Shown here piece after piece: positions 12,787-42,743 of a stretch of 64,000 nt of DNA (position 1 is the first letter of the stretch; each line of letters starts with the position of its first letter). The translations under genes were made by a program, and so were the position numbers. The notes under the pieces are model-generated. The model was given only the letters and a program-made list of their open reading frames with translations, was not told the DNA's origin and searched no databases. Source of the DNA: a virus; the IMG/VR virus record IMGVR_UViG_3300045988_115146; one strand, given 5' to 3'.

Positions 12787-13188
12787 ATGGCTAAGAAAAA
12801 GAAAGACAAACTTAAAGATGCCAGGGAAGAATTAGAATCAGGTGATATCCTTGAACCAATGGATATTTCTAAGTTGGGAACAAACGGAGATGTATGCTTT
12901 GGTAAGCATTATGATCTTTCAACCAAGGAATGCAAGATGTGCGGGGATTCCGAATTATGTTGTATCAAGTTCACAGATCTAATGGGTAAGACCAGAAAGG
13001 AATTAGAAGCTGATACCCAATACAAGGATTTGGAACCTTTGATTGATATGGCAGGTTGCAAGAAGTATTACCGTAAATTGGTAAGGGATAAACTTGGTAA
13101 GAGAGAAATACTTGATAAGCTTCAGAGTAGGTTTGAATTATCACGTAAAGAAGCAAGAGACTTATACCGTAAATTTAACAGTAAATAA
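12787..13188 (+). CDS. Lys-rich small protein with Cys cluster
   Basis: MAKKKKDKLKD N-terminus, CFGKH..CKMCGDSELCC cluster. No family recognised. Confidence 0.5.
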   Translation: MAKKKKDKLKDAREELESGDILEPMDISKLGTNGDVCFGKHYDLSTKECKMCGDSELCCIKFTDLMGKTRKELEADTQYKDLEPLIDMAGCKKYYRKLVRDKLGKREILDKLQSRFELSRKEARDLYRKFNSK

Positions 13189-13189
13189 C

Positions 13190-13765
13190 ATGATTCAATT
13201 AGAGTTCACAAAGATTCGGGAGGTTAAATCCCCCAACCGAGCAAACGAAGGGGATGCAGGTTTAGATTTCTATATCCCTAAGTTATCAGAAAAGGATATA
13301 CTAAGGGTGGGGGAAAAAGATTTACGTGATATGGTTGGTATCAACCGTAAGATGTATAGTAAAGGTTATATCAAGTTCAATGGTATGGGAACTGATGATC
13401 TTTATGTAATCGTTAAACCTCATGGAAGGTTGCTTATTCCATCAGGTATAAAGGTACTGATCAATCCCAAAGAGTCTATGCTAATGGCAGCAAACAAATC
13501 TGGGGTTGCTACTAAAGATGGGTTGACATTCACTGCAGAGATTGTGGATAGTCCATATACTGGTGAAATGCACATAGGTATACAAAATAATTCACCTGAA
13601 GAAGTATGGATACCTCTTCAACAGGATAAGAAGATAATGCAGTTCATACATGTTCCAATCCTACTTTCAAATCCCATAGAGATACCTAATGAGGAGTATG
13701 AAGAGAAAGCAAAGGACTGGGGAACAAGAGGAGACAAAGGATTTGGTGCACACGATAACAAATAA
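13190..13765 (+). CDS. dut: dUTP diphosphatase (trimeric dUTPase)
   Basis: AGLDFYIP, IVDSPYTGEMHIGIQN and C-terminal RGDKGFGAHD match dUTPase motifs. Start moved to the ATG at 13190, just after the upstream stop. Confidence 0.85.
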   Translation: MIQLEFTKIREVKSPNRANEGDAGLDFYIPKLSEKDILRVGEKDLRDMVGINRKMYSKGYIKFNGMGTDDLYVIVKPHGRLLIPSGIKVLINPKESMLMAANKSGVATKDGLTFTAEIVDSPYTGEMHIGIQNNSPEEVWIPLQQDKKIMQFIHVPILLSNPIEIPNEEYEEKAKDWGTRGDKGFGAHDNK

Positions 13766-13769
13766 GAAG

Positions 13770-14681
13770 ATGGACTCGAGGGACATAATTCAGGAACCTG
13801 GTATCATACCCGGTGATAAGTATTTGGAAGAGATATACTCTATGCAAAAAGAACTGTTATCTGGTTATATAGGCATAGAGGGATTACCACAATACCCAAT
13901 AGACATAAATACTAAGGCATCACAATCCTTGTTGAAGGATTTCACTGCTAGAGTGGTAGAGGAATTATCAGAGGGATATGAATCATTCCAAGCTATCAGT
14001 GAAAGTATGAGTAAAAATCATTGGAAGTTAGCTAATGGTAATTGTGAAGACTCAATCTACATTGAATTGTTAAACAATCTTCAAAATGCCAATGAAGAGA
14101 ATGCAGATGCAATACACTTCTTTGTAGAGTTGCTAATATATGCAAATGTAGGTCCAGATGACATTATGTCATATATGGAGAAGTATGCTAAGGATAATCA
14201 CTTCAATAAGATTGAAATTGATAGTTTCAATGAAATGAGAGGTGATGTATTATATACTGCTCAGAATATGGGAGTGAAATGGTTGATGGATGAGGGTAAT
14301 ATTGATGTTACACTTAATCATCAAAAGATAGATCTCTTAAAGTGGTATGAGAATAAAGATAGTGGATCTTTACCTGAATACAACATAAACTTATTAGTTG
14401 GTGGTAGGATGTATAACTATGAGGACTATGAAATTCAATATCCATACATACTGTGGAAGATAACCCATCACCTTAACATTGCTCGTAACTTTTTGAAGAA
14501 TAAGCCTTGGAAGCAATCTCAGGTAATGACTCAAGAGTTAAAGTACCAGGCTGAATTAGTGAAGGCATTCATATATTTCTGTGGATACCTTGGATGGATA
14601 GGTATGGATTCAAAGGAAGTATTCTACATCTACTTCAAAAAGAATCACATTAATATGTTCCGTCAAAAGTCGAAGTATTAA
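13770..14681 (+). CDS. All-alpha NTP pyrophosphohydrolase (MazG / dimeric dUTPase-like), tentative
   Basis: Acidic helix motifs ARVVEELSEGYESF and NANEENADAIHFFVELL plus KPWKQSQ resemble the E..E / E..D metal-binding helices of MazG/dUTPase_2 proteins. Start set at the ATG at 13770. Confidence 0.45.
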   Translation: MDSRDIIQEPGIIPGDKYLEEIYSMQKELLSGYIGIEGLPQYPIDINTKASQSLLKDFTARVVEELSEGYESFQAISESMSKNHWKLANGNCEDSIYIELLNNLQNANEENADAIHFFVELLIYANVGPDDIMSYMEKYAKDNHFNKIEIDSFNEMRGDVLYTAQNMGVKWLMDEGNIDVTLNHQKIDLLKWYENKDSGSLPEYNINLLVGGRMYNYEDYEIQYPYILWKITHHLNIARNFLKNKPWKQSQVMTQELKYQAELVKAFIYFCGYLGWIGMDSKEVFYIYFKKNHINMFRQKSKY

Positions 14682-14682
14682 T

Positions 14683-15672
14683 ATGAACATAGTAAAGAGC
14701 AATAGGCCAGTAGATGCTTGGGAGCAAATACTTGAAAATTTTTTGGTTAAGAAACCAGAATGGTTTAGTGAAGGGATAGGGTATAACTTAACCGATTCAT
14801 TATTCACTTATGATCTGGTAGTAGAGATATCAGAAGCTAAGTTTGATCCAGAATTTGATTTTGGTAAGTTATTTGGATATACAGCTACTAAGTGGACTGG
14901 ATTAATAACTAATTACCTTGATCTTGATATTCTTGATCAGGCAAAGTTAATGATAAGGAAGTTAGAGGAGAATAAGGCAGTAAATAGGAATTATCACATC
15001 GGTTTCCATTTTGCTGACAATCATGGCAGTGGAAAAGGATGCTTGGTTGGAGGTATATTCTCCCGTAAGATTGGGGTTGATAATCCTGAGGTAACAGTAA
15101 TCATACGTTCATCCGAAGTAGTTACAAGGTTGCCAATAGACATGTTGCTGTTCTGTCGTATGGGACAGTACATTTATGGTCATGATAATTTTTCATTGAA
15201 GTTAGTTATCAAGGCTGCTTGGGCAAATGATACTACCATACTTCTATATCAGAATATAAAGGACTTAAAAGAGTTCTTGAAAGAAAACTGTAATGATGAG
15301 GCTCGTAGGAAAAAGATACGTAAGTCACTGAAAAAATTAATGACAAGTGATGAGGCTAGTTATAAAACCTATGGCAACAGTTTTAGAGCTTTCAAAGTAC
15401 TTAGGAAAGATTTAGGATATAAGCAAAAATCAATGTTGGCCTCTGACTTAGAAATTGGAGATTGGGATGGAATTCCATTACCAGAGGTATGTCCATCAAT
15501 TCTAAAGCGTAACATGATAAAGAAGACATATCTTAAGTTCACAGAGAAGTATGGCCTTAAACTAAAGTTGGAAGAGAATACAGAGAAGAAAAAGAAAAAG
15601 TTGATATCATTCTCTTCACCTGATGAAGATGATATGGATGATAACGAACCAATAGCTGAGGCTAATGAGTAA
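14683..15672 (+). CDS. Thymidylate-synthase-fold protein, divergent paralog A (candidate pyrimidine C5 hydroxymethylase)
   Basis: By-eye alignment to ThyA: FGYTATKW ~ YGxQWR, GKGCLVGG ~ catalytic PCH, IIRSSEVVTRLPIDMLL ~ YQRSCDVFLGLPFNIAS (Asp replaces Asn177). Paralogous to the next ORF (DPEFDFG.., KW..LI.NY.D). Confidence 0.4.
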   Translation: MNIVKSNRPVDAWEQILENFLVKKPEWFSEGIGYNLTDSLFTYDLVVEISEAKFDPEFDFGKLFGYTATKWTGLITNYLDLDILDQAKLMIRKLEENKAVNRNYHIGFHFADNHGSGKGCLVGGIFSRKIGVDNPEVTVIIRSSEVVTRLPIDMLLFCRMGQYIYGHDNFSLKLVIKAAWANDTTILLYQNIKDLKEFLKENCNDEARRKKIRKSLKKLMTSDEASYKTYGNSFRAFKVLRKDLGYKQKSMLASDLEIGDWDGIPLPEVCPSILKRNMIKKTYLKFTEKYGLKLKLEENTEKKKKKLISFSSPDEDDMDDNEPIAEANE

Positions 15673-16450
15673 GTTAAAAGTAAAGAATAACCTGTTAGTG
15701 TTCCGAAATAGCATGAAAGCTTGGGAGGGGCTTAACAGGTTATTCTTATTCAATATTCCCGGTTTGGATATTGAAAGAATTGGTAAAGCTCAATATATAA
15801 ATGATTTGGTTATTTATATTAAAGAACCTCTAGTAGACCCGGAATTTGATTTTGGAAGGCACTTTAATTATACATCTGCTAAATGGAAATCTTTGATAGC
15901 TAATTATATAGATGAGAATTCAATGATTGATCTGAGACAAGAAGTGGTGAGATCATTGAATTCAAGAAAGATTTTCAACATAGGGTATCAGTTTGATAAT
16001 AAGCATGCACATGGAAAGAATTGTTTATTATCATTGACAGTATCAAAGAAAGCTGGTATGGATTATCCCATGATAACGGTATTCATGAGGGCTTCTGAAG
16101 TAACTAAAAGACTAATATGTGATCTTTTATTAATACAAAGAATTGGTGAATACATATTCACTGGGGATAAATTCTGTATATCAATACACTTTAGTCAGAT
16201 ATTCAATGATGATACGGTATTATTGATGTACCATGCTCATGAGGATCTATTAAAGCTTAGTGATAGAATTGGTATATATGATAGTAATTGGTATGATAGG
16301 CTGAAGTATCTACTAAAAGTAGATCCCGATAAGATAAAGTATAAGGTACATAAAAGAGCATTGAAAGTACTTAGGCCAGAATTGTTTAAGTATCCTAAAA
16401 CTCTGGCCAAGGATTGTACACTGGGTAATGAAGACTGGCTACCTTTCTAA
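15665..16450 (+). CDS. Thymidylate-synthase-fold protein, divergent paralog B
   Basis: Shares DPEFDFGRHFNYTSAKWKSLIANYID, HGKNCLLS and MRASEVTKRLICDLLL with paralog A over full length. 8-nt overlap with paralog A. Confidence 0.4.
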   Translation: MSKLKVKNNLLVFRNSMKAWEGLNRLFLFNIPGLDIERIGKAQYINDLVIYIKEPLVDPEFDFGRHFNYTSAKWKSLIANYIDENSMIDLRQEVVRSLNSRKIFNIGYQFDNKHAHGKNCLLSLTVSKKAGMDYPMITVFMRASEVTKRLICDLLLIQRIGEYIFTGDKFCISIHFSQIFNDDTVLLMYHAHEDLLKLSDRIGIYDSNWYDRLKYLLKVDPDKIKYKVHKRALKVLRPELFKYPKTLAKDCTLGNEDWLPF

Positions 16451-16494
16451 GAAAGGGAAGTCTATTGAATTGCAAACATAAAAAAATTATAACC

Positions 16495-17265
16495 ATGAGA
16501 ATATATTCAAATCCCTACGAATTGATGTCTGAGACTGCCCGTAATATATGGGAGATGGGTACAGAGGTAAAACCAAAAACTTACCAAAACAAAGTAATAG
16601 AAGGCAAAGATGAGTTCATAACTAAAGAGCTTATTTGTGAACAATATTGCTTAACTCACATGGATGATCCATCTCCATTATTTGTATTTACCAAATCTAA
16701 AGATTGGGCAGATGCCGAATTTAAAGAGAGAATTAGTGGAGTAATGGAAAATCCAGGTAAAGCTTGGGAATTACGTAAAGATATCTGGGAAGAGTTCTTA
16801 GTAAATGGGTTCTTTGATTATACCTATGCTGAACGTATGAATGAGACAGTTTCATATAAAGGCAAGGCATTTTCTAAAATAGGAGCAATTATAGAGTTGT
16901 TAAAAACAGACAACGATACTAGAAAAGCCATACTAAATATATATGGTGAGGATGGTTTTAATGAGGATTGTGATTCAAACTATCTTGGTGGTGAACATAG
17001 AATACCATGTTCAATGTATTATGATTTCCTTATCCGGGAGAATGCCAGAGGAGAAAAGCAATTAAATATTTGCTATCACCAAAGATCATCCGATTTTGTA
17101 ACTCATTTCGGAAATGATGTATATTTGGCATGGAGACTGATGGAATATGTAGCTAGTGAAGTAGGAATTAAACCTGGATATTTATATCAAACTATTGATA
17201 GTTTGCATAGCTATAAAAAAGATTGGGTAAAGTTAAAGACATCAATCCAAACTGAATTGAGATAA
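16495..17265 (+). CDS. Thymidylate synthase family enzyme (ThyA / dUMP hydroxymethylase-like)
   Basis: TRKAILNIY (SRR..w block), RIPCSMYYDF (catalytic Cys), CYHQRSSDFVTHFGNDVYLAWRLMEY (QRSxD..G.pfN) and DSLHSY (D.H.Y). Lacks the canonical DRTGTGT N-terminal block. ATG 16495 preferred over TTG 16465. Confidence 0.7.
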   Translation: MRIYSNPYELMSETARNIWEMGTEVKPKTYQNKVIEGKDEFITKELICEQYCLTHMDDPSPLFVFTKSKDWADAEFKERISGVMENPGKAWELRKDIWEEFLVNGFFDYTYAERMNETVSYKGKAFSKIGAIIELLKTDNDTRKAILNIYGEDGFNEDCDSNYLGGEHRIPCSMYYDFLIRENARGEKQLNICYHQRSSDFVTHFGNDVYLAWRLMEYVASEVGIKPGYLYQTIDSLHSYKKDWVKLKTSIQTELR

Positions 17266-17348: not shown

Positions 17349-17425
17349 GGGCCCATAGCTCAGTTGGTAAGAGCAGCGGACTCATAATCCGAAGGTCGGG
17401 GGTTCAAGCCCCTCTGGGCCCACCA
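17349..17425 (+). tRNA. tRNA-Met (or Ile2) anticodon CAT, CCA encoded
   Basis: Cloverleaf folded by hand: acceptor GGGCCCA/TGGGCCC, D arm GCTC..GAGC, anticodon loop CTCATAA, T arm GGGGG-TTCAAGC-CCCTC, ACCA end. G1-C72 argues for an elongator type. Confidence 0.85.
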
Positions 17426-17524
17426 AAGATTTTCTCTTATTTTCTTATTTTGTGCGTGGACAATACAAACAGTCCTGGTAAATTCGAAGGTACTAGACAG
17501 TAGTGATACAGGCTAGTACCAATT

Positions 17525-17599
17525 ACGGGAGTAGCACAGTCAGGTTAGTGTACTTGCTTTGGGAGCAAGTGGTCGCAGGTTCGAATCCTGTCTCCCGTA
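17525..17599 (+). tRNA. tRNA-Pro anticodon TGG
   Basis: Acceptor ACGGGAG/CTCCCGT, anticodon stem CTTGC/GCAAG with loop TTTGGGA, T arm GCAGG-TTCGAAT-CCTGT. Confidence 0.85.
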
Positions 17600-17612
17600 C
17601 ATATTAGTAAAG

Positions 17613-17695
17613 GCTCGGATGGAGAAATAGGTAAACTCATCAGATTTAAGCTCTGACGGTCATTGACCTTGCGGGTTCGACTCCCGCTCCGAGTA
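17613..17695 (+). tRNA. tRNA-Leu anticodon TAA (class II, long variable arm)
   Basis: Acceptor GCTCGGA/TCCGAGT, anticodon stem TCAGA/TCTGA with loop TTTAAGC, variable arm GGTC-ATT-GACC, T arm GCGGG-TTCGACT-CCCGC. Confidence 0.8.
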
Positions 17696-17719
17696 CATAG
17701 TATCAAATACTCTTGTCTT

Positions 17720-18418
17720 ATGAATGATGTTATAATTACCATGGCTGGAAAGGGTACAAGAACAAATAAAGAAGTACCCAAACAATTCTTAAAAGTATCA
17801 CAAGATAAATACCTATTTGAAATCTCATTAGATAAATTTATACGTACTGGATGCTATCGTAAGATAGTTCTTGTTGTGAATCCAGAGTATGTAGAGTGGG
17901 TAAAAAATAGAATATCTAATAACTATCCAGGTAAATTAGGCAGATTAATCACAGTAATACCAGGTGGTGATACTGCACAACACTCGAGAATCTTAGGATT
18001 TGAAAGCTTATTAACAGATGAGGAATCACTTTGGCCAAATACAGTTACTTTCCATGATGGTGTAAGAGTTGGTTTCGATGAAAATCTACTAACATTCATG
18101 ATTAATAATTGTAGGTTTAATAGCACTGCATATGTACCGTATATTCCAGCAACTGGTACATTAAGATTAGATTCTGATAAGGTAGTATATACTAAGGATA
18201 AGTACATGAGGCTTCAGACTCCCATGGTATTTCCATTTTACCAATTCTATGGATGTTATAATAAGGCAAAAGATAAGGGTATAGAATACCAAACAGCTTC
18301 TGATTTGTATGAAGACAACAGTGGTTTAGTGAACTATGTAATGGGTAATAGATTGAACTTCAAGGTAACTTTCGCAGAAGATATTGATGTAGTAAGATTA
18401 TTATACAATCATGAATAA
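17720..18418 (+). CDS. IspD/TarI-family cytidylyltransferase (CDP-alcohol forming nucleotidyltransferase)
   Basis: N-terminal [23 protein letters not shown] matches the AGxGxR...PKQ(F/Y)L signature. IVLVVNP and [10 protein letters not shown] blocks. Start set to the ATG after tRNA-Leu. Confidence 0.7.
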
Positions 18419-19283
18419 TATGAGTTATATTAGTAATCATATCCATAATGGTCATCTAATAAGCAACCTTAGGAGAGAAGTATGGGATATAGAACTAGAT
18501 ATGTTAGATCTAGTAGTTAATATATGTGACAAGATAGGAGTAAAATATTATCTTGATGCAGGTACACTATTAGGTGCAGTTAGACACCAAGGATTCATAC
18601 CTTGGGATGATGATATCGATTTGGTAATGTTCAGAGATGAATATGATAAGTTTATATCATACTGTAGGGAAAATTTAGAATATCCATATTTCTTACAAGT
18701 ACCAGAAACTGATACTTCTATTTATCAACATGCAAAGATAAGGAGGAGTGATACAACAGCTATATTAGAAAGGGATCTAGAAGCTAATTGGGATTTTAAT
18801 CAAGGCATATTCATAGATATATTCCCATTAGATAGAGTTCCAGAAGATAAGGGGAAAAGGGAAAGATTTCTATATGAATTGCAATTAATTAAACTAGAAC
18901 TCTTCTTTTTAAAGAATAGGAGCTGGAAATTTGCTAATATTCCCCTTGAAAGGGAAAGAATGAATTACCTTAAAAACCTTTATGAAAAGAATAGGAAAAG
19001 GTATAATAACACTCAAGAGAATTGTTGGGCAACATTAGCTTTTCCTGAACATAACAATATCATAAAGAATATTGATTTTTACAAGAACCAATATCCGGAT
19101 GTATTCTTAACATTTGAAGGTAGAAATTTGAGAGTACCGAATATTTACCATGGAGTATTGGAAGACATATATGGAGAGGATTACTTAACTCCCAAGAAAT
19201 ATTCTGGATTACATGGTAGGATATTGGTGAATACTCATAAAACATATAAAAACAATATGGAAGACTTTCAAATATTGAAGTAG
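18411..19283 (+). CDS. LicD-family phosphotransferase (CDP-alcohol dependent, fukutin/LicD type)
   Basis: [36 protein letters not shown] is the hallmark LicD motif. 8-nt overlap with the cytidylyltransferase gene. Confidence 0.8.
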
Positions 19284-19288: not shown

Positions 19289-19322
19289 AGACAGTATACC
19301 GTAAAAAGTATACTGTCTTATT
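19289..19322 (+). terminator. Rho-independent terminator
   Basis: Perfect 11-bp stem AGACAGTATAC/GTATACTGTCT, 8-nt loop, then TATTGT. Confidence 0.65.
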
Positions 19323-19403: not shown

Positions 19404-20972
19404 ATGGAGTCAAGATATGCCATAATAAAGAGTTTTTCACAGGTTAAGAAACTTGTGAAAGCTTGTTTGAAGACAGGTATAGCTTCAATAGACTATGAGA
19501 CTAATGCTGAAGGCATATACAATAAAACATTTAGACCAACAATTCTATCAGTAACTTTCCAGGTTGGTTCTGGAGTATCTATTCCATTATGTCATCATGA
19601 ATATGATAACCCTCATTGGAAAAAATGGCTTCTATACTTTGGTAGAAAAGTAGTTGAGAATCCAAAAGTAACTAAAGTAGGTTGGAATCTGAAGTTTGAC
19701 CTTCAGATATTCGAGTTGTATGGTATATATGTAAGAGGTACAGTACTTGATGGTATGTTAATGAAGTATCTCTTAAATGAAGAGAAACCAAATGACCTTA
19801 AATCAATGGTTCGTAGGTATTTACCAGAACACGGAGATTACGAAAAAGCTGATAAGTTTGATAAGATACCATGGAATAAAAAGCCACTGGAACCACTCTG
19901 CAAATATGGATGTCAAGATACCGATTATACCCTACGATTATCTATGTTCTTTGAGAACAAATTGATAGAAATAGGTATGTATCCATTATTAAGGCATCTG
20001 ATAATGCCAGCATCAAGAGTATTACAGCATGCAGAGAAAACTGGTTTATACCTTGATAGGAAATTCAATCAGGAATTACTTGAATCTTACAAGCCAAAGA
20101 TTGATCAAGCAACTTTAAATTGCTTGAATCTTCCCAGAGTTAAAAGATTCTCTAGATGGCTTATCCAAGAAAGAATAAGCAAATACATTTCTTCAATTGA
20201 AATGGAACTTGAAGACTTGGATTATAGTGATCCAAAAAATGCAAGGAAGATAGCTAGCAGGGAACAAAAAATATCTAACATAAGAGCTGGTGTATATACA
20301 ACCAAGAAAGAATTAGAATTAACCCGTGATATAAATCTTGGTAGTAAAGTAGACTTACCAATGTTGTTATATTCTGAAAAGGGGTTCAAATTCCCTATTA
20401 TAAAATATACGAAGGATAAGACTACAAATCGTGATACTGATAAGCCGAGTACTGATGAGGATACATTGGTAGAACTTCGGTTGTCAATTAAGAATCCCGA
20501 AAGTCCCAAAGCAATATTCTTGGATAATCTACTCAAGTTGAGAGGATTGAAGAAGATGTACACTACATATATAAAAGGGTGGCACGATAAAGTACAGGAT
20601 GATAATAAATTACATGGAAGATTTTTGATACATGGAACAACTAGCGGGAGATTGAGTTGCATAGGCGGAGATACAAAAGTATTAACTCAATATGGAGAAA
20701 TACCAATTATAGATATTAAGGATTGGATTGGTGAAGGATTATGTGCCATGACTAAAGATGGGTGGCAATTAATAGAAAACTTCATATATAAGGGTGTTGA
20801 TGATATGTATGAAGTAACACTTGAAGATGGTACTTCTATTCAATGTACTTTAGATCATAAATTTATAACTAATAAAGGTACTAAAAGATTAAGGGAAATT
20901 TACAATAAATACCGAAATACTATTGATTCTAAAATTAAACTTTTAAGATATGTCCCAGACTACGAACAATAG
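19404..20972 (+). CDS. Family A DNA polymerase, N-terminal fragment (3'-5' exonuclease + palm start) fused to split-intein N half
   Basis: Exo I SIDYET, Exo II WNLKFD, Exo III YGCQDTDY. Extein ends HGTTSGRLS at 20657. Then CIGGDTKVLT...TLDH... (104 aa, intein blocks A/B) and TAG. Confidence 0.85.
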   Translation: MESRYAIIKSFSQVKKLVKACLKTGIASIDYETNAEGIYNKTFRPTILSVTFQVGSGVSIPLCHHEYDNPHWKKWLLYFGRKVVENPKVTKVGWNLKFDLQIFELYGIYVRGTVLDGMLMKYLLNEEKPNDLKSMVRRYLPEHGDYEKADKFDKIPWNKKPLEPLCKYGCQDTDYTLRLSMFFENKLIEIGMYPLLRHLIMPASRVLQHAEKTGLYLDRKFNQELLESYKPKIDQATLNCLNLPRVKRFSRWLIQERISKYISSIEMELEDLDYSDPKNARKIASREQKISNIRAGVYTTKKELELTRDINLGSKVDLPMLLYSEKGFKFPIIKYTKDKTTNRDTDKPSTDEDTLVELRLSIKNPESPKAIFLDNLLKLRGLKKMYTTYIKGWHDKVQDDNKLHGRFLIHGTTSGRLSCIGGDTKVLTQYGEIPIIDIKDWIGEGLCAMTKDGWQLIENFIYKGVDDMYEVTLEDGTSIQCTLDHKFITNKGTKRLREIYNKYRNTIDSKIKLLRYVPDYEQ

Positions 20973-22004
20973 GCAAAAGGTATTCAAAGATAAATCTATC
21001 AACGGTCCAAGGAGAAAATTAAAGTTAATAGTAGAGGATGGTAAAAGATATATAAAGAAAGAAGATCTTTTACATTACTTCTTTCAAGAGAATTGGAATA
21101 TAGAAGACTTTAATTATCATTTTGGCATTGGTCATAGGATAGTGAGAGGTTCTCTATATAAATGGTTTACTAGGGAAGAAATAGAGGAATCTCATAGAAA
21201 GAAGATTGCTAATAAACAGATTGGTAGTAATAATTCTAATAGGATTAATTGGTATAAACCCCGTAAGCTTATACCTTTATTGGATTTAGAAGAAGCCGTT
21301 AAAAAATCTACTTGTAAACAGGATTTGAAGGAGAGACTACAATTAACTTCTTGGGAATTGTCACACATACAACAGTTCTATAACTTTAAACTACCAAATA
21401 GATCTCCTTTACTTAATACTAAACTACAGTATTCTCTTTCTAGATGTGATATAAAACTTTTATGTAAAGTTATTACTGGAATGGGATGGGAAGATGTATT
21501 TTTCTATAATACTCCTAAGGCTATCTATAAAATGGATTGTCTTATTTGGGAACTTAGGAAGATAAATCGTTCTTTGAGGAGAGCTTTTAGGAAACAGATA
21601 GTAGATAATGGTATTAAGTTTCCTACAAATTTGATAGAGTATAAATTTCACAAAGCTCTAGAAAAAATGGATATAGAGCATGAAATACAATATTATATAC
21701 CAGAACATAATATACATCTAGACTTTTTAATAAAAGGTCATTACAACTTGGAATTAGATGGAAATTTGCATGAAGAAGAAGCAGATAGTGGTAGAGACCG
21801 TATTCTCAAATCTCTTGGCTATAAAATTATAAGACTAGATTTAAAATCTCTAAATCTTACTAGATTCTCAAAAGAAAAGGAGGTAAGGAAATGTATAAAG
21901 AAATTGGTATTACCAAAGTTAAACCAATAGGTAAGAAAGGTGTATATGATTTATCCGTTATGAACTGTCATCAGTTTGTGGCTAATAATATCCTAAATCA
22001 TAAT
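20658..22004 (+). mobile_element. Split intein (IntN 20658-20969, IntC 21891-22004) with an embedded free-standing endonuclease gene
   Basis: Inserted in the invariant GRLS|S..PNLQ motif. 1347 nt (449 codons), so both polymerase halves share one frame. IntC ends VANNILNHN followed by Ser. Confidence 0.8.
20950..21930 (+). CDS. Free-standing homing endonuclease, Vsr/DUF559-like PD-(D/E)XK domain
   Basis: Different frame from the polymerase halves and overlaps both. C-terminus HEIQYYIPEHNIHLDFLIKGHYNLELDGNLHEEEADSGRDRILKSLGYKIIRLD matches the Vsr-like ..DF....l.iE.DG..H...D..Rd..L...G...iR pattern. Confidence 0.65.
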   Translation: MSQTTNNRQKVFKDKSINGPRRKLKLIVEDGKRYIKKEDLLHYFFQENWNIEDFNYHFGIGHRIVRGSLYKWFTREEIEESHRKKIANKQIGSNNSNRINWYKPRKLIPLLDLEEAVKKSTCKQDLKERLQLTSWELSHIQQFYNFKLPNRSPLLNTKLQYSLSRCDIKLLCKVITGMGWEDVFFYNTPKAIYKMDCLIWELRKINRSLRRAFRKQIVDNGIKFPTNLIEYKFHKALEKMDIEHEIQYYIPEHNIHLDFLIKGHYNLELDGNLHEEEADSGRDRILKSLGYKIIRLDLKSLNLTRFSKEKEVRKCIKKLVLPKLNQ

Positions 22005-23045
22005 TCTCAAGAACCAAACTTACAGCAAATCCCAAAGACTTCAGTAGACCCAAATATAAAGAAGCAATTAGTAGCCCCAGATGGTAAGTTGTACATGGCT
22101 CTTGACTACTCTCAAGCAGAGTTAAGAATCATGGCTCATCTGTCTGGGGATGAAACATATCTTGAGGCTTTTGCAAAAGGTCAGGATCCTCACCTTGCTA
22201 TTGCAGCAAAGAAGTATGGGGTATCATATGAGGAAGCATATAAAGCTTACAGTGATGAACAACACCCAGATCATAATCTTTGGAAGAACCGAAGAAAGCA
22301 GGCAAAACAGATTTGCTTCGGTATTATCTATGGTATTCAGAAGAAACTGCTTGCAGTTAAATTGTCAGATCCAAAAGCTGGTATTATTGTAACACCAGAT
22401 GAAGCTCAGCAGCAGTTAAATGAATTCTTCTATGAACATCCTAAGATTAAAAAGTTCATGATTCATCAAGAAAAGGTATTGATTAAGCATGGGTATATAA
22501 AATCTTTGTTCGGAAGAAAGAGAAGGTTACCTCAGGTATATTCCGATAATGAACAAGAAGCAGCATACGCAGTACGATTATCTGTTAATATGCCATGTCA
22601 ATCAGCAGCATCTGATATGAACTTATTTGCTTCAGTATTAAACTATTGGAAAATGAGACAAGGTAAGTTGCCATTTATGCAAGAGACTTGTAATGTTCAC
22701 GATGCTACCTACTATTTGGTGAGGCCAGAATATATAAATACATGGGTAGTACATGAAATATGGGAAACTTGTCGTAACCCTAATACAAAAGAATATTTTA
22801 ACTTTCAGATAGACGACGTCAATATGAGCATGGATTTTGTTATAGGACGTTCAATGGCAGAGGAATTACCATTTATACCCGGTTATGATTATAGGAAAAT
22901 GCTTAAACCAGATTTTAATCCAGATGAGTACTTAGAAGAACATCGTAAGTACAGAGGTATTGAAATAGAAGATTACCCTAAGTTGTATCCAGAAGAGATA
23001 GCTAGGAATAAAATGGAATTTGAGAAAAGGATATATGAAAGGTAA
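21891..23045 (+). CDS. Split-intein C half fused to family A DNA polymerase C-terminal fragment
   Basis: 38-aa IntC, then SQEPNLQQIP. Motif A LDYSQAELRIMAH, motif B RRKQAKQICFGIIYG, motif C NVHDATY. AAGGAGGT at 21877-21884 upstream of the ATG. Confidence 0.85.
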   Translation: MYKEIGITKVKPIGKKGVYDLSVMNCHQFVANNILNHNSQEPNLQQIPKTSVDPNIKKQLVAPDGKLYMALDYSQAELRIMAHLSGDETYLEAFAKGQDPHLAIAAKKYGVSYEEAYKAYSDEQHPDHNLWKNRRKQAKQICFGIIYGIQKKLLAVKLSDPKAGIIVTPDEAQQQLNEFFYEHPKIKKFMIHQEKVLIKHGYIKSLFGRKRRLPQVYSDNEQEAAYAVRLSVNMPCQSAASDMNLFASVLNYWKMRQGKLPFMQETCNVHDATYYLVRPEYINTWVVHEIWETCRNPNTKEYFNFQIDDVNMSMDFVIGRSMAEELPFIPGYDYRKMLKPDFNPDEYLEEHRKYRGIEIEDYPKLYPEEIARNKMEFEKRIYER

Positions 23046-37495: not shown

Positions 37496-37527
37496 TTTGC
37501 ATATTATAATTAGAAATATTATATTTG
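37496..37527 (+). promoter_or_regulatory. Bacteroidota sigma-A type promoter
   Basis: TTTGCA at 37496, 20-nt spacer, TATATTTGCA at 37520. ATG at 37549. Confidence 0.7.
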
Positions 37528-37548
37528 CATAACGAATAAATTTAAAAG

Positions 37549-38007
37549 ATGAAAATTAATCGAGGCTGTATCAGGTTAAAATTGCAAAGTCATTTATCCG
37601 CTCAGGATATCTGGAATCAAATTATGGATGTGCAGATTCAGGCGCTAGAATCCCTTTTAGAGGATAAAAGCTTAGATAAATGGAAAATTATATTCCCTTG
37701 TTATGGAACTTCTCTAGAATCAGTAGAATCATGGGCAAGGGAATATATAGAATCCTTTAAAATGATGAAAGGAGATACCTTTAATAATAGGTATGATGAT
37801 ATTGAAAACATGTTAGTAAATGGACTAAACCAAAGATGGTTCAATACTATAATGAGTACATTATATATGATGGAAGAGGACTTAATGGAAATGAGTTCTG
37901 ATTCAGTATTCATTCTTTGGGATATTTTATTTACTTGCCAGGCATTGAGGAAGGAAAATAATGTAGTAGCTATGGGACTTAATATTTTCGAGCTTAAAGG
38001 ACGATAA
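37549..38007 (+). CDS. Hypothetical protein
   Basis: First ORF downstream of a promoter. No motif recognised. Confidence 0.5.
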   Translation: MKINRGCIRLKLQSHLSAQDIWNQIMDVQIQALESLLEDKSLDKWKIIFPCYGTSLESVESWAREYIESFKMMKGDTFNNRYDDIENMLVNGLNQRWFNTIMSTLYMMEEDLMEMSSDSVFILWDILFTCQALRKENNVVAMGLNIFELKGR

Positions 38008-38009
38008 CG

Positions 38010-38237
38010 ATGAAAGAAGTATTTAATACCACGGGATCATCCAGAATTGAAAAGGTTATTTTTGACCTCGATAATAGGGATATAACCATAACTTTCAAGG
38101 GAAATAAGGTATACAAATATGTTTCTGTATCGGAGTTTGATTTTAATACTTTCAAGGATGATATTGAAAATGGTTTATCAGTAGGCAAATCATTTGAAAG
38201 AAGGATTAGGAATAAATATGCAGGCCAAAAGCTATGA
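38010..38237 (+). CDS. KTSC domain protein
   Basis: SSRIEKVIFDLDNRDITITFKGNKVYKYVSVSEFDFNTFKDDIENGLSVGKSF fits the KTSC pattern S.i..v.Yd...L.i.F..G..Y.Y..V....f..f.....S.Gk.f. Confidence 0.55.
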   Translation: MKEVFNTTGSSRIEKVIFDLDNRDITITFKGNKVYKYVSVSEFDFNTFKDDIENGLSVGKSFERRIRNKYAGQKL

Positions 38238-38653
38238 AAAGGTATTACACACCAGAAGGAGAACCAGATGAAGCAAAAACTTTATGGGAAGCCGTTAAAA
38301 CTGGTATCATAGGAATATCGGCATTTAGTGTAATCTGCATACTATGGGATGGTCAAACAGTTCCCCCTACTCCTGATTCAGAACCTCATTGGAAAAACTG
38401 GGATAAATCTAGACATGTATCAGAAGTAAAAAGTTATGACTACGAAAATGGTATAATTCATTATAGAGATGAAGTTACAGGATATAGACCCAGGGAGTTC
38501 AATCTTCATGGGTCTCCCGGTAGTTATGGTTCTGGAATAACATTGCAAGTATCAGGAGCTTCAGTACATTTGGATATGGAAGTAGAAGAACTGATGGATC
38601 AACTAACAGAAGATGTAGATTTTTACGAATACTTTGAACGAAATATGGATTGA
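38234..38653 (+). CDS. Hypothetical membrane-anchored protein
   Basis: TM segment TGIIGISAFSVICILW. ATGA coupling. Confidence 0.45.
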   Translation: MKRYYTPEGEPDEAKTLWEAVKTGIIGISAFSVICILWDGQTVPPTPDSEPHWKNWDKSRHVSEVKSYDYENGIIHYRDEVTGYRPREFNLHGSPGSYGSGITLQVSGASVHLDMEVEELMDQLTEDVDFYEYFERNMD

Positions 38654-38654
38654 T

Positions 38655-38990
38655 ATGGCTGGTCTAATTAAATTCAGATTGAACAAGTATGTTAATGGCG
38701 ATAGGCATAAAAGTATTTATGGATTCAAACCCAAAGCCGTTATTAAGTTTGAAAGAGTTACAATCGGTCAAATAATTGATAATGAAGTCTACTTCTACAT
38801 AAGGGTAAAACCAGGAGAATCAAAGCATGCCTGCTTGAATTATATTCCAATACTGTGGAAAACTTTTAGCAGTCATCTGGAAGCTAAAGATGCAGTAGTA
38901 AAACAAGCAGAATCTATTTGGGAATCATTAGACATTTTTCATCCGTTAAAGAAAGTTAAATCAACCTATGGATTATGGGAAAAGAAGTAA
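38655..38990 (+). CDS. Hypothetical protein
   Basis: ATG 38655 right after the upstream TGA (track start 38634 overlaps). Confidence 0.45.
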   Translation: MAGLIKFRLNKYVNGDRHKSIYGFKPKAVIKFERVTIGQIIDNEVYFYIRVKPGESKHACLNYIPILWKTFSSHLEAKDAVVKQAESIWESLDIFHPLKKVKSTYGLWEKK

Positions 38991-39298
38991 AGAAAACTAA
39001 TAGCTGGGTATGGAAGAAAGTATTTGGTATAACTCTATTGGGATGGATGAATATCTTGATATTTCAATGGCTATTCATAAGGATATCCTATCATTGGGTA
39101 TATGTAGACCCTAAGAATGATGATGATGCTAGAACAGATGATTTTTGGGATGCAGAGAAACAGCAGTTTGTTGCAAAAACTTTCTACTACTATGCCATTA
39201 TCGGGTGTATTATACCTCTAACTGGATGGTGGGGAGACTATGTAATGCCGTTCAAATTCAAATGCCGTTTAACTAAAGTAAAAGAGTATTACGAATGA
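38975..39298 (+). CDS. Hypothetical two-pass membrane protein
   Basis: VFGITLLGWMNILIFQWLFI and YYYAIIGCIIPLTGWW hydrophobic segments. Confidence 0.45.
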   Translation: MGKEVKKTNSWVWKKVFGITLLGWMNILIFQWLFIRISYHWVYVDPKNDDDARTDDFWDAEKQQFVAKTFYYYAIIGCIIPLTGWWGDYVMPFKFKCRLTKVKEYYE

Positions 39299-39483
39299 GT
39301 ACAGTAGAATTCAAATCAGCATGTGCAGCACATAGAAAGTGTTGTCCATATAAGGCAACAGGTATGACAAAGTGTGGTGCCAATGAAAACATTACTCCTG
39401 ACGGTAAATGTACTAATAAGGAATGCCACTACATGAATCAGTTCAAAGCTATACTAAGAAAACTATCAGCTAGTAAGCCATGA
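39295..39483 (+). CDS. Small Cys-rich protein
   Basis: 6 Cys in 62 aa (CAAHRKCCPY..CGAN..CTNKEC). Confidence 0.45.
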   Translation: MSTVEFKSACAAHRKCCPYKATGMTKCGANENITPDGKCTNKECHYMNQFKAILRKLSASKP

Positions 39484-39511
39484 ACAGACCTTTAAATAAT
39501 TAGCAAAATAA

Positions 39512-39543
39512 TTTGCAGGGGTTCATATTTATATCTATATTTG
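39512..39543 (+). promoter_or_regulatory. Bacteroidota sigma-A type promoter (upstream member of a tandem pair)
   Basis: TTTGCA 39512, 20-nt spacer, TATATTTGCA 39536. No ORF before the next promoter. Confidence 0.6.
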
Positions 39544-39624
39544 CATAAACAATAAAAGGGAAAGCAATAAAAGGTTAACACACTAGAGACCAAGAACACA
39601 ACCACTAAGAAATTGATAAAAATA

Positions 39625-39656
39625 TTTGCACATATAAAAAAGTTACTTTATATTTG
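39625..39656 (+). promoter_or_regulatory. Bacteroidota sigma-A type promoter
   Basis: TTTGCA 39625, 20-nt spacer, TATATTTGCA 39649. ATG at 39720. Confidence 0.7.
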
Positions 39657-39719
39657 CATTAGGAAATAAAAATAAAAATAACTTTTAATTAATTGTATAA
39701 CCATTTAAAATTGTAAGCC

Positions 39720-40175
39720 ATGAAAAAGGAAAAAAACACCAAGGCTCAGGAAGTTAAAAAGACCAATCTGGTAGAGGGTATCAATAACCTCATCGAAGAA
39801 AAAGCTGAGAAGGTCGAAAAATCAAAGAAAGCTCTGAAGGTAGTTGGCAAAGAAAAGGAAGCTACAGAAAAGGCCTCAGAGAAGAAGGTCAAGAAAACCA
39901 AAAAAGAAAAACTGGTTGATAAAACCAAGAAAAAGGTGGAAGCCAACCTCGTAGAGGAGGTAGTAACAAAAAGGGAAGTAAAGTATATTTATCCCGCAGA
40001 CTGCGAGGACACTCTTTCAAGAAAGAAGTTCCGGCAGCAGGTAAGAAATAAAATCCACCAGCTGGAATTGGCAATGCTCAGAATCGAGAACCAAGATTCT
40101 AAAGAGTTCAAGAAAGCCAAGAAGGAGTATCTTGAATATAAGAATCAATTCGTAAAAGAATCAGTTGCAATCTAA
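39720..40175 (+). CDS. Lys/Glu-rich highly charged protein
   Basis: MKKEKNTKAQEVKKT...KKVKKTKKEKLVDKTKKKVE. GC-richer codons. Confidence 0.55.
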   Translation: MKKEKNTKAQEVKKTNLVEGINNLIEEKAEKVEKSKKALKVVGKEKEATEKASEKKVKKTKKEKLVDKTKKKVEANLVEEVVTKREVKYIYPADCEDTLSRKKFRQQVRNKIHQLELAMLRIENQDSKEFKKAKKEYLEYKNQFVKESVAI

Positions 40176-40192
40176 TCTTTCATAGTAGGAGA

Positions 40193-40227
40193 GGGGTACA
40201 GGGCTAATTATTAAGTCCTGGCCCCTT
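40193..40227 (+). terminator. Possible terminator hairpin (imperfect)
   Basis: GGGGTACAGGGC.../...GTCCTGGCCCC stem with one bulge. Weak T tract. Confidence 0.35.
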
Positions 40228-40259
40228 AGTATAATGATCATTTAATGTTATGAAAGATT

Positions 40260-40565
40260 ATGATTGTTGGCTTACCAGAGAAAGCAATTCAGAAAGTAGA
40301 TCATGAATTGTTAGAATTACATAAAGAAGTTCTAAGAGCATATCTTACACAGAGAAATCTGAAACATAGGCATCAGAAGAAGTTTTTTAGGCTATACGAT
40401 TACTACATTACTGAGAAGAATATAAGGAGATTCTTCTTCCGTTCTGCTAAGTTATTCGTATATGCCTTGGTAACTAATCGGCTGGATGATATAGAAGACT
40501 ATGTACCAATAAAAGAAAAAAAAATTAATGTTTCCAGAGAAAGTAAAAAGCGTAACGCTAGATAA
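40260..40565 (+). CDS. Hypothetical basic protein
   Basis: Co-directional 101-aa ORF. Confidence 0.45.
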   Translation: MIVGLPEKAIQKVDHELLELHKEVLRAYLTQRNLKHRHQKKFFRLYDYYITEKNIRRFFFRSAKLFVYALVTNRLDDIEDYVPIKEKKINVSRESKKRNAR

Positions 40566-40944
40566 ATCAAGGATAACTTACTACCTTCAAACTACCAATA
40601 TTGATAATATTTATAATGAATTACCAGTAAACCCAGAGATATATAAGGTAGAAGATTTGGCATTTGACTGCAGTATAAGGTCTAGTCAGTATCTTCCAGA
40701 TTATGCTATCAAGGGATATTTTAAGGTAGACGAAAATTTAAGGTATCCAGTATTTATAGAGAACACAAATGGGCCTCATTTATTATATATTACTGGGATG
40801 CCAAAGAATATATCGGTAGAAGAGAAGAATAAGTTCAGGTTTCAAAATCATATGTGGTTATCATACTGGGAAGATAACCTGGTAGGATATCTTTTTCAGG
40901 TAGTATCTAGAGAACAAGCATTAATACACTTAATAAATCAATAA
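40528..40944 (+). CDS. Hypothetical protein
   Basis: Co-directional 138-aa ORF overlapping the upstream ORF. Confidence 0.45.
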   Translation: MFPEKVKSVTLDKSRITYYLQTTNIDNIYNELPVNPEIYKVEDLAFDCSIRSSQYLPDYAIKGYFKVDENLRYPVFIENTNGPHLLYITGMPKNISVEEKNKFRFQNHMWLSYWEDNLVGYLFQVVSREQALIHLINQ

Positions 40945-40964
40945 TTTGTAAATAATAAAACACT

Positions 40965-41429
40965 ATGAAGACCAATGAGTATGTAAAACAGTTTAAGTTG
41001 GATAGAGAAAATTACAACTTCAACCGGGAAAAATTCATGGAGGCCTTTGGCCAGGAGTTTAAGGACCGTATTGAGGCAATGATAACTGCCTGCCAAAAAA
41101 TGAAGGTTCAGTTCACATACGAAAAATTCCTTCATGCAGTAAAAGAACAGAAGGATAAATTCCGGAGTATTTCTAATAGGAAAGCTGGTGAGCCATTCTC
41201 TGAAAAGTTATTCTCTGCATTCTTTGCCTTACATGTAATTCCTATTAGAGCAAACCTTTTCCCCAATCTACATGCAGAATTGGAAGAGAAAAGGAAAAAG
41301 GCCATTGAAAGGTATGAAAAGATTAAGGCAGAATTAGAGGCCAAGGAGAAAGAGGAAAAGACAAAACAAAAGCGAATGGAACCCATTTTGGAAGCAATAA
41401 TAGCTTATGGAGCTGCACATGAAAGATAA
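40965..41429 (+). CDS. Lys/Glu-rich helical protein
   Basis: ELEEKRKKAIERYEKIKAELEAKEKEEKTKQKR coiled-coil-like tail. GC-richer codons. Confidence 0.5.
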   Translation: MKTNEYVKQFKLDRENYNFNREKFMEAFGQEFKDRIEAMITACQKMKVQFTYEKFLHAVKEQKDKFRSISNRKAGEPFSEKLFSAFFALHVIPIRANLFPNLHAELEEKRKKAIERYEKIKAELEAKEKEEKTKQKRMEPILEAIIAYGAAHER

Positions 41430-41514
41430 GCCTAATATGAAGAGATAATTCCTAATAATACAAGACTCTAAAGTTACTAAGATTTTATGAAGACCATTTT
41501 TAGAAATTGCCAAA

Positions 41515-41748
41515 TTGGCCCAGGATAAAATTGTAAACTTCTATCAAGGAGCTGGTGAAAGTGAAGTAAATATAAGCTTTTGCTATAGTATTAGTTCAGT
41601 GGATATAGAGATAGTATATCCCATACATGTACAAAAGCTATTTTCAGAACTTTTTGCTATGAGTAACCAGCTTAAAGCTGAATGTCATATTGGGGAATAT
41701 AAAATAACCCTAAGCTCTTCAAAATTGAAGGTAAGCCTAATTCAGTGA
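41515..41748 (+). CDS. Hypothetical protein (TTG start)
   Basis: Only a TTG start is available. Followed by a strong terminator. Confidence 0.3.
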   Translation: MAQDKIVNFYQGAGESEVNISFCYSISSVDIEIVYPIHVQKLFSELFAMSNQLKAECHIGEYKITLSSSKLKVSLIQ

Positions 41749-41781
41749 TCCAGCAACCTGATTATTAAATAGTTAACTCTA

Positions 41782-41815
41782 AAAGGCCCTTTATTTGGTA
41801 AGGGCCTTTTATTTG
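41782..41815 (+). terminator. Rho-independent terminator
   Basis: AAAGGCCCT / AGGGCCTTT 9-bp stem, then TATTTGG. Confidence 0.65.
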
Positions 41816-41856
41816 GTTATTAATAGATCAACTATTAGATACCAAAATACAACACT

Positions 41857-42711
41857 ATGAAAGAACAAAAAATAGCTCAAAGGTTCCCAAGAGGAATTGG
41901 TATAACTCAATTGGCTATACAAGCTAACAATGGCGATGATGAAGCTATGAAGAATTTGACCAAGTTCATAATCCATATATGGATAGTGAATAATGGAAAA
42001 CTTTGGTCAAGATATTATTCAGTAAATGAACTAGCAGATTTTCTTAGATGTGAACCCGCAATAGTTCAGATGCAAATGAAACAAACGTTTCTAGACAACG
42101 GTTTATTTGACCGTAACAAGATGGAAGAAATCGCTGATTCATTGATGGGGGCTTGTATAGGCTGGGCACTTGAGGATCGTATGGAAATAAGCCAACAGCT
42201 TCAAATACTCCGGGATTGTCAGGGAGGAAAGTATGCTCCTTTCATAACCTCTGAAGTAAATAAAGCTATCGGGTTAAAACAACAATCTACAACTTCTCTT
42301 CAGAGTCTGGTAAGAGCCATATCCGGAGGTGGTACTGTGAATATTTTCAATCAACAGAACAATCAATTCAACAATGGAGTATCTGAAGAACAGACTTTAA
42401 CTCGGGATGAAGCTATGACTCTGATCCAAAAAGAGATTGCCAATAAGGGAGGTATAAAAGAGTTAGAGTATGTAGAAAATCAGTATGACTTCAAAGAATT
42501 GCCCGTTGTAGTTGCAACTAAACAAGAAGGTAATAGGGGAGATAAAGAAGGATTAACTCTCAGAAAGGCCGAATTAGATAGCGTAACAGCAGACTATCAT
42601 GGTGCCTTAAAAGCCTTTGATGAAGATCATCACCAAATCCGACGAGAAATCGAAGAGGGGATAGACTATGAAGAAATCGACCCAGAACTCGAGGATAACC
42701 CCGAAATTTAA
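41857..42711 (+). CDS. Hypothetical protein
   Basis: 284-aa ORF. No motif recognised. Confidence 0.5.
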   Translation: MKEQKIAQRFPRGIGITQLAIQANNGDDEAMKNLTKFIIHIWIVNNGKLWSRYYSVNELADFLRCEPAIVQMQMKQTFLDNGLFDRNKMEEIADSLMGACIGWALEDRMEISQQLQILRDCQGGKYAPFITSEVNKAIGLKQQSTTSLQSLVRAISGGGTVNIFNQQNNQFNNGVSEEQTLTRDEAMTLIQKEIANKGGIKELEYVENQYDFKELPVVVATKQEGNRGDKEGLTLRKAELDSVTADYHGALKAFDEDHHQIRREIEEGIDYEEIDPELEDNPEI

Positions 42712-42743
42712 TTTGCAAATATTGATTTAATTCGTTATATTTG
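42712..42743 (+). promoter_or_regulatory. Bacteroidota sigma-A type promoter
   Basis: TTTGCA 42712, 20-nt spacer, TATATTTGCA 42736. Begins right at the stop of the upstream gene. Confidence 0.7.

Follow-up and report, generated by a model that had tools for sequence, protein, structure and literature searches.

Polyol-phosphate attachment is known from bacterial capsules, from teichoic acids and from human dystroglycan. In phages, adjacent ispD and licD genes were described in only some 'Flandersviridae' by Benler et al. 2021 (Microbiome 9:78, PMC8008677), who read ispD as serving isoprenoid synthesis and licD as serving the addition of choline to teichoic acid, and did not join the two into one pathway. 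The occurrence of the pair in phages is already known from that work, the only paper on the pair itself that we found in the literature on phage LicD proteins, cytidylyltransferases and hypermodification. Here we analyse an IspD-like and a LicD-like gene at positions 17720-19283 of the virus record IMGVR_UViG_3300045988_115146; the stretch analysed (hereafter the window) is ~64 kb out of a ~75-kb contractile-tailed human gut phage. To the earlier description we add a reading of the pair as one pathway, its history of insertion and transfer, its dissociation from a neighbouring island of thymidylate synthase (TS)-like genes, an acidic phage LicD clade and the missing reductase. As far as enzymology and cassette nature alone are concerned, we consider it very probable that the pair is a functional, mobile cassette of a cytidine diphosphate (CDP)-alcohol synthase and an alcohol-phosphate transferase. 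Its elements are listed below, with lengths in amino acids (aa) or nucleotides (nt).

17720..18418, + strand: IspD-family cytidylyltransferase, 232 aa, Pfam IspD (PF01128), E 2.8e-25
18411..19283, + strand: LicD/FKTN/FKRP-family phosphotransferase, 290 aa, Pfam LicD (PF04991), E 4.6e-39
18411..18418, + strand: overlap of the LicD start with the IspD stop, 8 nt, ATGAATAA

Predicted enzymes of the pair

The original prediction named the two products as IspD/TarI-type and LicD-type enzymes, and both identities hold up: each protein passes its Pfam threshold with catalytic motifs intact. The upstream protein scores 89.8 bits against PF01128 (cut-off 27), a full-length match over residues 4-223 of 232. 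Its cytidine triphosphate (CTP)-binding and catalytic motifs GxGTR, PKQF, HDGVR, QTP and NFKVT, which line the active site in solved IspD/TarI enzymes, are kept in the window protein and in the related phage groups B and C described below, as checked in alignments to 1vpa, 4kt7 and 5ddt. The best solved relative is the T. maritima IspD (1vpa, E 6e-19), with TarI 4jis at E 2.6e-9 and further matches to B. subtilis TarI, human ISPD (4cvh) and the pneumococcal and staphylococcal TarI proteins. The protein falls below the cut-offs of two NCBIfam equivalog models, with 105.2 bits against 181.3 for the methylerythritol phosphate (MEP) cytidylyltransferase (TIGR00453) and 61.6 bits against 166 for the ribitol-5-phosphate cytidylyltransferase TarI (NF001183). 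Judged by these scores, it cannot be called a true isoprenoid-pathway IspD, and since both cut-offs are missed, its substrate is not assignable. An assignment from sequence was tried and dropped, similarity to either side being about equal (72 bits to the T. maritima IspD, 49-80 bits to IspDs of polysaccharide clusters). The PHROGs collection has no LicD family and gave a marginal IspD match only. We describe the product of 17720-18418 as a predicted CDP-polyol (CDP-alcohol) synthase.

The downstream protein scores 135.3 bits against PF04991 (cut-off 22.6) and covers profile positions 1-227 of 227. Its metal-site block, GTLLGAxRHxGxIPWDDDxD, is invariant in 21 aligned LicD sequences and includes the DxD motif; the protein matches FKRP at E 2e-7, and the DxD block aligns with the FKRP metal site. 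An AlphaFold (AF2) model, with a mean predicted local distance difference test score (pLDDT) of 85.5, was compared with solved structures by Foldseek. The top 13 matches were all FKRP (E 5e-7 to 8e-6; template-modelling score 0.45-0.49 by query length), among them the FKRP CDP-ribitol complex 6kam, and FKRP was the sole strong match. The modelled protein thus has a nucleotidyltransferase fold like that of the FKRP catalytic domain. It is predicted to move an alcohol-phosphate from a CDP-alcohol onto a hydroxyl acceptor, where we infer the CDP-alcohol type of donor solely from the coupled IspD. Among diverged clade members, differences are mostly synonymous, with a rough ratio of nonsynonymous to synonymous change (dN/dS) of 0.14-0.2 that suggests purifying selection.

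The 8-nt overlap and tight coupling proposed by the original prediction hold with the first ATG of licD, at 18411. Public gene calls (P0001, 287 aa) start instead from another ATG, at 18420, which would separate the two genes by 1 nt. An unrelated 85-kb phage lineage also keeps both the N-terminal MNNM and the ATGAATAAYATG junction in its DNA, and this recurrence argues for the first ATG and for translational coupling.

Together the enzymes would act in two steps, a logic already proposed for this locus and now supported by the motifs, the FKRP-like model, the four phage lineages described below and bacterial gene clusters. In the first, the IspD-like enzyme would join CTP to a host-made phosphorylated alcohol to give a CDP-alcohol. 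The cassettes of groups A, B and C and of L087 showed no reductase (TarJ or short-chain dehydrogenase/reductase, SDR), and an SDR reductase follows in 4/5 of the IspD-adjacent bacterial loci scanned; the phage enzyme would thus have to work with a phosphate ester supplied by the host. This narrows the possible donors, and candidates that need no reductase are MEP, a pentose or pentulose 5-phosphate, glycerol phosphate and host-made ribitol-5-phosphate. In the second step, the LicD-like enzyme, with a DxD-bound metal, would transfer the alcohol-phosphate to a hydroxyl group and release cytidine monophosphate. This is the chemistry of FKRP, fukutin and the bacterial LicD enzymes.

Distribution, transfer and genomic setting

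Four phage lineages share the order IspD then LicD, with genes that overlap or nearly abut. Group A, the clade of the window, comprises 15 IMG/VR contigs with LicDs 91-99% identical; group B consists of nine 42-85 kb IMG/VR contigs, with LicD 47-49% and IspD 30-32% identical to the window proteins. Group C contains phages of 100-170 kb that read TGA as Trp: their LicDs are 43-45% identical and contain three to four TGA codons in frame, most of which fall where Trp is conserved. In the fourth lineage, L087, the pair overlaps by 4 nt and lies near genes for a CCA-adding enzyme and YqeY. tRNA genes adjoin the pair in groups A, B and C; in C it lies within a 17-tRNA array. One tRNA of that array has the anticodon CUA and is called 'Pyl'; across 20 kb of the group-C locus none with UCA was seen, and a contig related to group C has a tmRNA gene. 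These features come from L027 1-20846 and L028 7726-8147.

By walking from one group-B contig we assembled a complete genome of 85,183 bp without conflicts (contigs L241, L251, L212, L196, L176, L021 and L184). It fits the Flandersviridae description, with BACON, DnaB, DnaG, PolA, a contractile tail and a GC content of 49%, and its IspD-LicD pair comes after the tail-fibre genes. The same genome encodes FolE, QueD (PTPS), QueC and a radical-SAM/4Fe-4S protein, a set of 7-deazaguanine precursor genes; Pfam scans of it gave no match to DpdA/TGT. Near the pair are MazG, an N6/N4 methyltransferase and a Tad2-like anti-Thoeris (anti-defence) domain, and the genome also has a LAGLIDADG-containing intein and a domain of the Fe/Mn superoxide dismutase type.

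Between the window and the group-B genome, only PolA (28%) and RecA/UvsX (21%) show detectable similarity. The window's TerL, portal, capsid and DnaB have no match there, and by this test the window phage does not belong to the Flandersviridae. Because the LicDs are 47-49% identical and share the ATGAATAAYATG junction despite unrelated genomes, the comparison indicates that phages without relationship to each other have exchanged the cassette. In a 5.8-billion-protein collection, identity to the window drops from 87% to 46% for LicD and from 87% to 36% for IspD with nothing between, whereas the neighbouring TSl2 family is continuous from 86% to 33%. A close relative in GenBank, MT121964 ('Phage DP SC_6_H4_2017', unannotated), is 94.7% identical to the window; among GenBank LicDs it stands at 98%, one uncultured fecal contig at 48% and all other records at or below 37%.

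This distribution bears on the reading of Benler et al. (PMC8008677), in which the two would be unrelated metabolic genes, IspD boosting MEP flux and LicD adding phosphocholine to teichoic acid. The family names fit it, and among solved structures the IspD is slightly nearer to MEP enzymes than to TarI. But in all four lineages IspD is directly followed by LicD, which it overlaps or abuts at a conserved dual-coding junction, and bacteria also pair LicD with IspD in polysaccharide-type clusters. The host, a member of the Bacteroidota (see below), is without teichoic acid, and the IspD family does not make CDP-choline. We regard two unrelated functions as highly improbable.

The history of insertion can be read from a sister lineage (L091/L092, ~82.6 kb). 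Its gene order (helicase, dUTPase, MazG, TSl1, (ThyX), TSl2, TS, tRNA Met/Leu/Pro, polA) is that of the window, but IspD and LicD are absent. The elements around the insertion are as follows.

17349..17425, + strand: tRNA-Met (CAT), called by ARAGORN; the cassette-free sister lineage has its orthologue in this position
17525..17600, + strand: tRNA-Pro (TGG), called by ARAGORN; orthologue in the sister lineage
17613..17696, + strand: tRNA-Leu (TAA), called by ARAGORN; ends 23 nt before the IspD start
17095..17127, + strand: candidate Bacteroidota-type promoter (TTTG-N-TAnnTTTG), from a pattern search; 222 nt upstream of tRNA-Met
19289..19318, + strand: hairpin GACAGTATAC-N8-GTATACTGTC, 6 nt after the LicD stop; perfect 10-11 bp stem

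As the cassette-free sister has both the tRNA cluster and polA, the cassette was inserted between pre-existing tRNAs and polA, and tRNA regions may be insertion hot spots for it. Adjacency to tRNA genes was considered as a sign of a tRNA-related function and kept only as an improbable alternative: with the same cluster in the sister lineage, the tRNAs of the window clade mark the insertion site and are not cargo. LicD is also disrupted in some variants. In the window-clade contig L016 (9109-9973), an 8-bp deletion (TTATATCA, equal to window 18652-18659) frameshifts LicD, and a 172-aa C-terminal LicD fragment forms a 31-member protein cluster (P0005), from which we conclude that natural LicD loss-of-function variants circulate. 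The pair is an accessory, horizontally moving cassette among gut phages.

In the window, the cassette sits where the original prediction placed it, between nucleotide-metabolism genes (13094-17265) and the family A DNA polymerase gene (19404-23045). The three tRNA genes, which that prediction did not mention, fill 17349-17696 directly upstream, and since tRNA-Leu ends only 23 nt ahead of IspD, the pair is probably co-transcribed with the tRNAs. The promoter candidate at 17095..17127 is the sole + strand site of its motif near the cassette; it lies within the 3' end of the TS homologue and may be a coding coincidence. No site of the motif occurs between the tRNAs and IspD. The hairpin after LicD has a folding energy of -17.1 kcal/mol (z -3.44), and in the diverged relatives L026 and L038 its stem is identical and its loop different. 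The pair had been credited with its own terminator at 19289; a conserved hairpin is indeed present, but it is not a canonical terminator, and its weak T-tail explains why a terminator scan of the window did not call it. It is likely a transcript end or a processing site before polA. The genes would accordingly be translated as a coupled pair and transcribed with the tRNA cluster and the nucleotide-metabolism operon, ending at this hairpin.

Shine-Dalgarno enrichment is absent in the window. The promoter motif TTTG-N17-23-TAnnTTTG occurs 18 times against 3.0 expected (0/100 shuffles reached 18), and 10 times against 1.1 expected in the group-B genome. A sigma-70 scan of the window gave 24 sites against 21 expected; that scan is uninformative here, and the Bacteroidota motif is the relevant one. 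By the Shine-Dalgarno result and the promoter motif, the predicted host is a member of the Bacteroidota. Near-identical promoters of this type (TTTGCA…TTATATTTG) cluster on the + strand at window 37496-49308 ahead of small open reading frames (ORFs), in what is probably the early region.

The GC content of the window is 35%, and its structural genes lie at 54-64 kb and 1-6 kb. The large terminase gene (54863-57385, 840 aa) has an HNH endonuclease domain inserted at residues ~252-490, and the polymerase gene is split across three ORFs. Its N-part ends with an intein N-fragment (…SGRLS/CIGGDTKV…, the slash marking the boundary), its C-part opens with an intein C-fragment (…ILNHN/SQEP…), and a 326-aa endonuclease-like ORF (DUF559 match) lies between them in another frame, at 20950-21930. 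This layout is repeated in the independent contigs L005, L008, L009, L014 and L015. Intein-less polA genes (~2.3 kb) occur in L006 and L010, and contiguous inteins (~3.3 kb) in L011, L001 and L091 (with HNH_3). The window polA resembles a split-intein gene accompanied by a homing endonuclease that stands free, and the terminase insertion is probably another intein or homing-endonuclease insertion.

Candidate acceptors

To our knowledge, all LicD-family enzymes characterised so far act by decorating glycans or glycolipids. The acceptor in our proposal would likewise be a Bacteroidota envelope glycan, decorated during infection, a change that would mask receptors or exclude other phages. A host of this phylum makes capsule, lipopolysaccharide or O-glycan precursors the candidates, and not teichoic acid. 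Among the loci compared, the closest non-phage LicD that we inspected lies in a polysaccharide locus, among glycosyltransferases and flippases, and a strong IspD adjoins LicD in 12/80 bacterial LicD loci, in polysaccharide-type clusters. Other viral contigs carry LicD with glycosyltransferases or beside the lysis module, in the manner of conversion genes. A large set of ~36-40 kb IMG/VR contigs (L060-L084) has, at 1-2972, an SDR gene and a 625-aa SDR-LicD fusion at the contig end, beside an amidase (lysis) gene; it looks like conversion-type cargo or a prophage-boundary artefact. We rank the host envelope glycan first among the targets, followed by phage DNA and the virion, about equal. Taken as a whole, the statement that includes this target is tentative, and we would expect it to fail somewhat more readily than to hold.

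Several observations weigh against a host-glycan target. LicDs from phage contexts form one clade in 100/100 neighbour-joining (NJ) bootstraps, with groups A, B and C exclusive in 94/100; the clade is confined to phage contexts, and such monophyly means that LicD was not captured repeatedly from hosts, as would be expected of an enzyme tracking variable host glycans. In 185,579 species genomes the best match is 36% identical, and no bacterial LicD exceeds 36-39% identity to that of the phage cassette. All 16 of the 16 phage-clade LicDs are acidic (isoelectric point, pI, 4.8-6.7; net charge -1 to -17), whereas bacterial LicDs are mostly basic (median pI 8.7), in a comparison of the phage loci (window, L020, L021) and proteins P0003-P0030 with the bacterial loci L096-L157. 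The shift may reflect a changed acceptor or lost membrane association, and the acidity hints at an enzyme that has ceased to act on lipid-linked acceptors at the membrane. The neighbours of LicD-only relatives are genes for DNA ligase, endonuclease V, single-stranded DNA-binding protein, sigma factor or tailspike. No lysogeny genes or module were seen in the pair-carrying phages, which look virulent. Finally, the layout around the window pair matches that of DNA-hypermodification clusters, with TS homologues, donor synthesis, transferase and DNA polymerase. The genes concerned are these.

13094: dUTPase-like gene, upstream of the pair
13689: MazG-like gene, upstream of the pair
14683 and 15665: TS-fold paralogues TSl1 and TSl2, without Pfam hits and 35% identical to each other
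16465: divergent TS homologue, upstream of the pair

They form a pyrimidine-metabolism island spanning window 13094-17265; in the sister lineage, ThyX and DUF3310 are also present, placed between the two paralogues. On this layout rests the view that the target is phage DNA: the island would make a hydroxymethyl or hydroxyl pyrimidine, LicD would add the alcohol-phosphate, and the bulky base would block restriction. With the polymerase gene directly downstream and a P-loop kinase at 27282 that fits a base-modification pathway, the setting resembles known clusters that pair a nucleotidyltransferase with a group transferase beside TS homologues and DNA polymerase. The model of TSl2 (pLDDT 91.3) has a phage dCMP hydroxylase as its best match (9iqu, E 2e-7) and also matches the CMP hydroxymethylase MilA and the T4 dCMP hydroxymethylase. 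In the TS homologue, positions 169 and 177 (E. coli numbering, ungapped alignment) are both Asp, the cytosine-specificity residue among them; by the criteria of PMC13326640 this would point to an enzyme directed at cytosine but other than a 5-hydroxycytosine synthase. The modification cluster of YerA41 has an IspD-like gene, the modifications of Carin-5 and SP-15 contain phosphate (Carin-5 yields a C3H7O5P ion), and group B, too, has base-modification genes (FolE, QueD, QueC, radical SAM), with anti-defence genes near the pair.

The pair and the island dissociate both ways, however. The sister lineage has the island alone. In the complete group-B genome, where a Pfam scan of ORFs of at least 140 aa was combined with searches of the TSl profile and the TS homologue against ORFs of at least 60 aa, no TS-family, TET-type or glycosyltransferase match was found, and the pair stands alone. 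The transferase is thus not co-inherited with a base-hydroxyl enzyme. The original prediction, which had suggested a possible link of the pair to DNA modification through the island and proposed looking in relatives for the pair beside TS-like genes, is not supported on this point: the linkage is not kept. An island without the pair and a pair without a TS-family gene imply that polyol-phosphate on hydroxymethyl-pyrimidine is not the shared function of the LicD clade, although it may be a clade-specific use. Other points also speak against DNA as the target: 7-deazaguanines provide no hydroxyl, no glycosyltransferase was found among the window ORFs scanned, and a C5-cytosine DNA methyltransferase (53000-53992, Pfam E 6e-17) does not fit full cytosine replacement. 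Acidic LicDs would be unusual for DNA-binding enzymes, and the phage is readily assembled from short-read metagenomes (its protein cluster holds 1921 sequences). The DNA-modification reading is weakened, the cassette appearing functionally independent of the neighbouring island, and we now regard it as unlikely.

Alternatively, the polyol-phosphate may go onto the virion, on capsid, tail or fibre proteins or their glycans, where it would alter adhesion, stability or immune recognition; a phage-specific acidic clade suits a soluble protein acceptor. The position of the group-B pair after tail-fibre genes is in keeping with this, as is the contig L094, with a tailspike gene ahead of two LicD paralogues. 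LicD proteins are numerous in giant viruses, and a number of them carry a fused glycosyltransferase domain, but their roles there are themselves only inferred. In a viral structure library, our LicD model matches a Bodo saltans virus protein of 456 aa, which bears an IspD annotation and may be an IspD-LicD fusion. The window pair itself lies far from the structural genes, the absence of a glycosyltransferase among the scanned window ORFs counts here too, and we know of no phage example of polyol-phosphate on virions. Decoration of the virion seems to us as improbable as modification of DNA.

A further group of acceptors comprises tRNA or RNA ends, a host protein or a small signalling molecule, modified as counter-defence. 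In groups A, B and C the pair has tRNA genes as its direct neighbours, L087 adds the CCA-adding enzyme and YqeY, a Macro domain is found in L093, and the group-B neighbours include the Tad2-like protein, MazG and a methyltransferase; the LicD fold class is shared with tRNA- and antibiotic-nucleotidyltransferases. Yet the tRNAs of the window clade predate the cassette, tRNA regions may be mere insertion hot spots, and in LicD-only phages there are no tRNAs near LicD. No precedent for an acceptor of any of these kinds is known to us, and we give such acceptors little credence.

A broader proposal is that the phage-specific, acidic LicD clade has left glycan chemistry. With a reductase-less IspD and a universal host metabolite (for example MEP, via its CDP-activated form, CDP-ME), the pair would place polyol-phosphate on a phage-relevant macromolecule other than a host polysaccharide, be it a virion protein, tRNA/RNA or, in the window clade, hydroxylated DNA bases. 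We consider this doubtful; if true, it would be a new class of macromolecular modification, serving counter-defence or virion function.

Decoration of a host envelope glycan remains our first choice of target. Whichever acceptor is used, if the pair works as proposed, common gut phages carry a portable two-enzyme kit for attaching polyol-phosphates. Its target would show how abundant uncultured Bacteroidota phages change the host surface, their own particles or nucleic acids, and would make clear why unrelated phages exchange the kit. The natural frameshift variants and the cassette-free sister phages are ready-made controls.

Comparison with known systems

The mammalian enzymes ISPD and fukutin/FKRP, which build ribitol-phosphate on alpha-dystroglycan, share with the cassette both protein families and the two-step chemistry, which is predicted here. 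The phage LicD differs in being only 13-15% identical to FKRP in structural alignment and in being without a stem or zinc-finger domain.

DNA-hypermodification clusters (T4 glucosyl-hydroxymethylcytosine; RB69/DLP3 arabinosyl-5-hydroxycytosine, PMC13326640; YerA41/Carin-5/SP-15) resemble the locus in genomic layout. Their known transferases are GT-A or GT-B glycosyltransferases and not LicD proteins, and here the transferase is not inherited together with the TS homologues.

Bacterial CDP-pentitol modules (TarI/TarJ, Bcs1, AbpA/AbpB with LicD-family proteins), from loci for capsule and teichoic acid, likewise place an IspD-family and a LicD-family gene side by side in one operon. In those modules, LicD precedes IspD, an SDR reductase mostly follows, and the genes lie among glycosyltransferases and flippases, whereas in the phage cassette IspD comes first, neither a reductase nor a glycosyltransferase accompanies it, and LicD is acidic rather than basic.

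The nearest system is the Flandersviridae cassette (PMC8008677). The window phage is of another lineage, with a GC content of 35% against 49% and no shared similarity in terminase, portal, capsid or DnaB, and in its clade the pair is fixed, behind a tRNA cluster and between the TS-like island and polA. In both, adjacent IspD and LicD genes lie in a non-structural module of a gut Bacteroidota myovirus, in the same order and with the same ATGAATAAYATG junction, and the LicDs of groups A, B and C group together in 94/100 NJ bootstraps, which makes the window cassette one of the Flandersviridae type.

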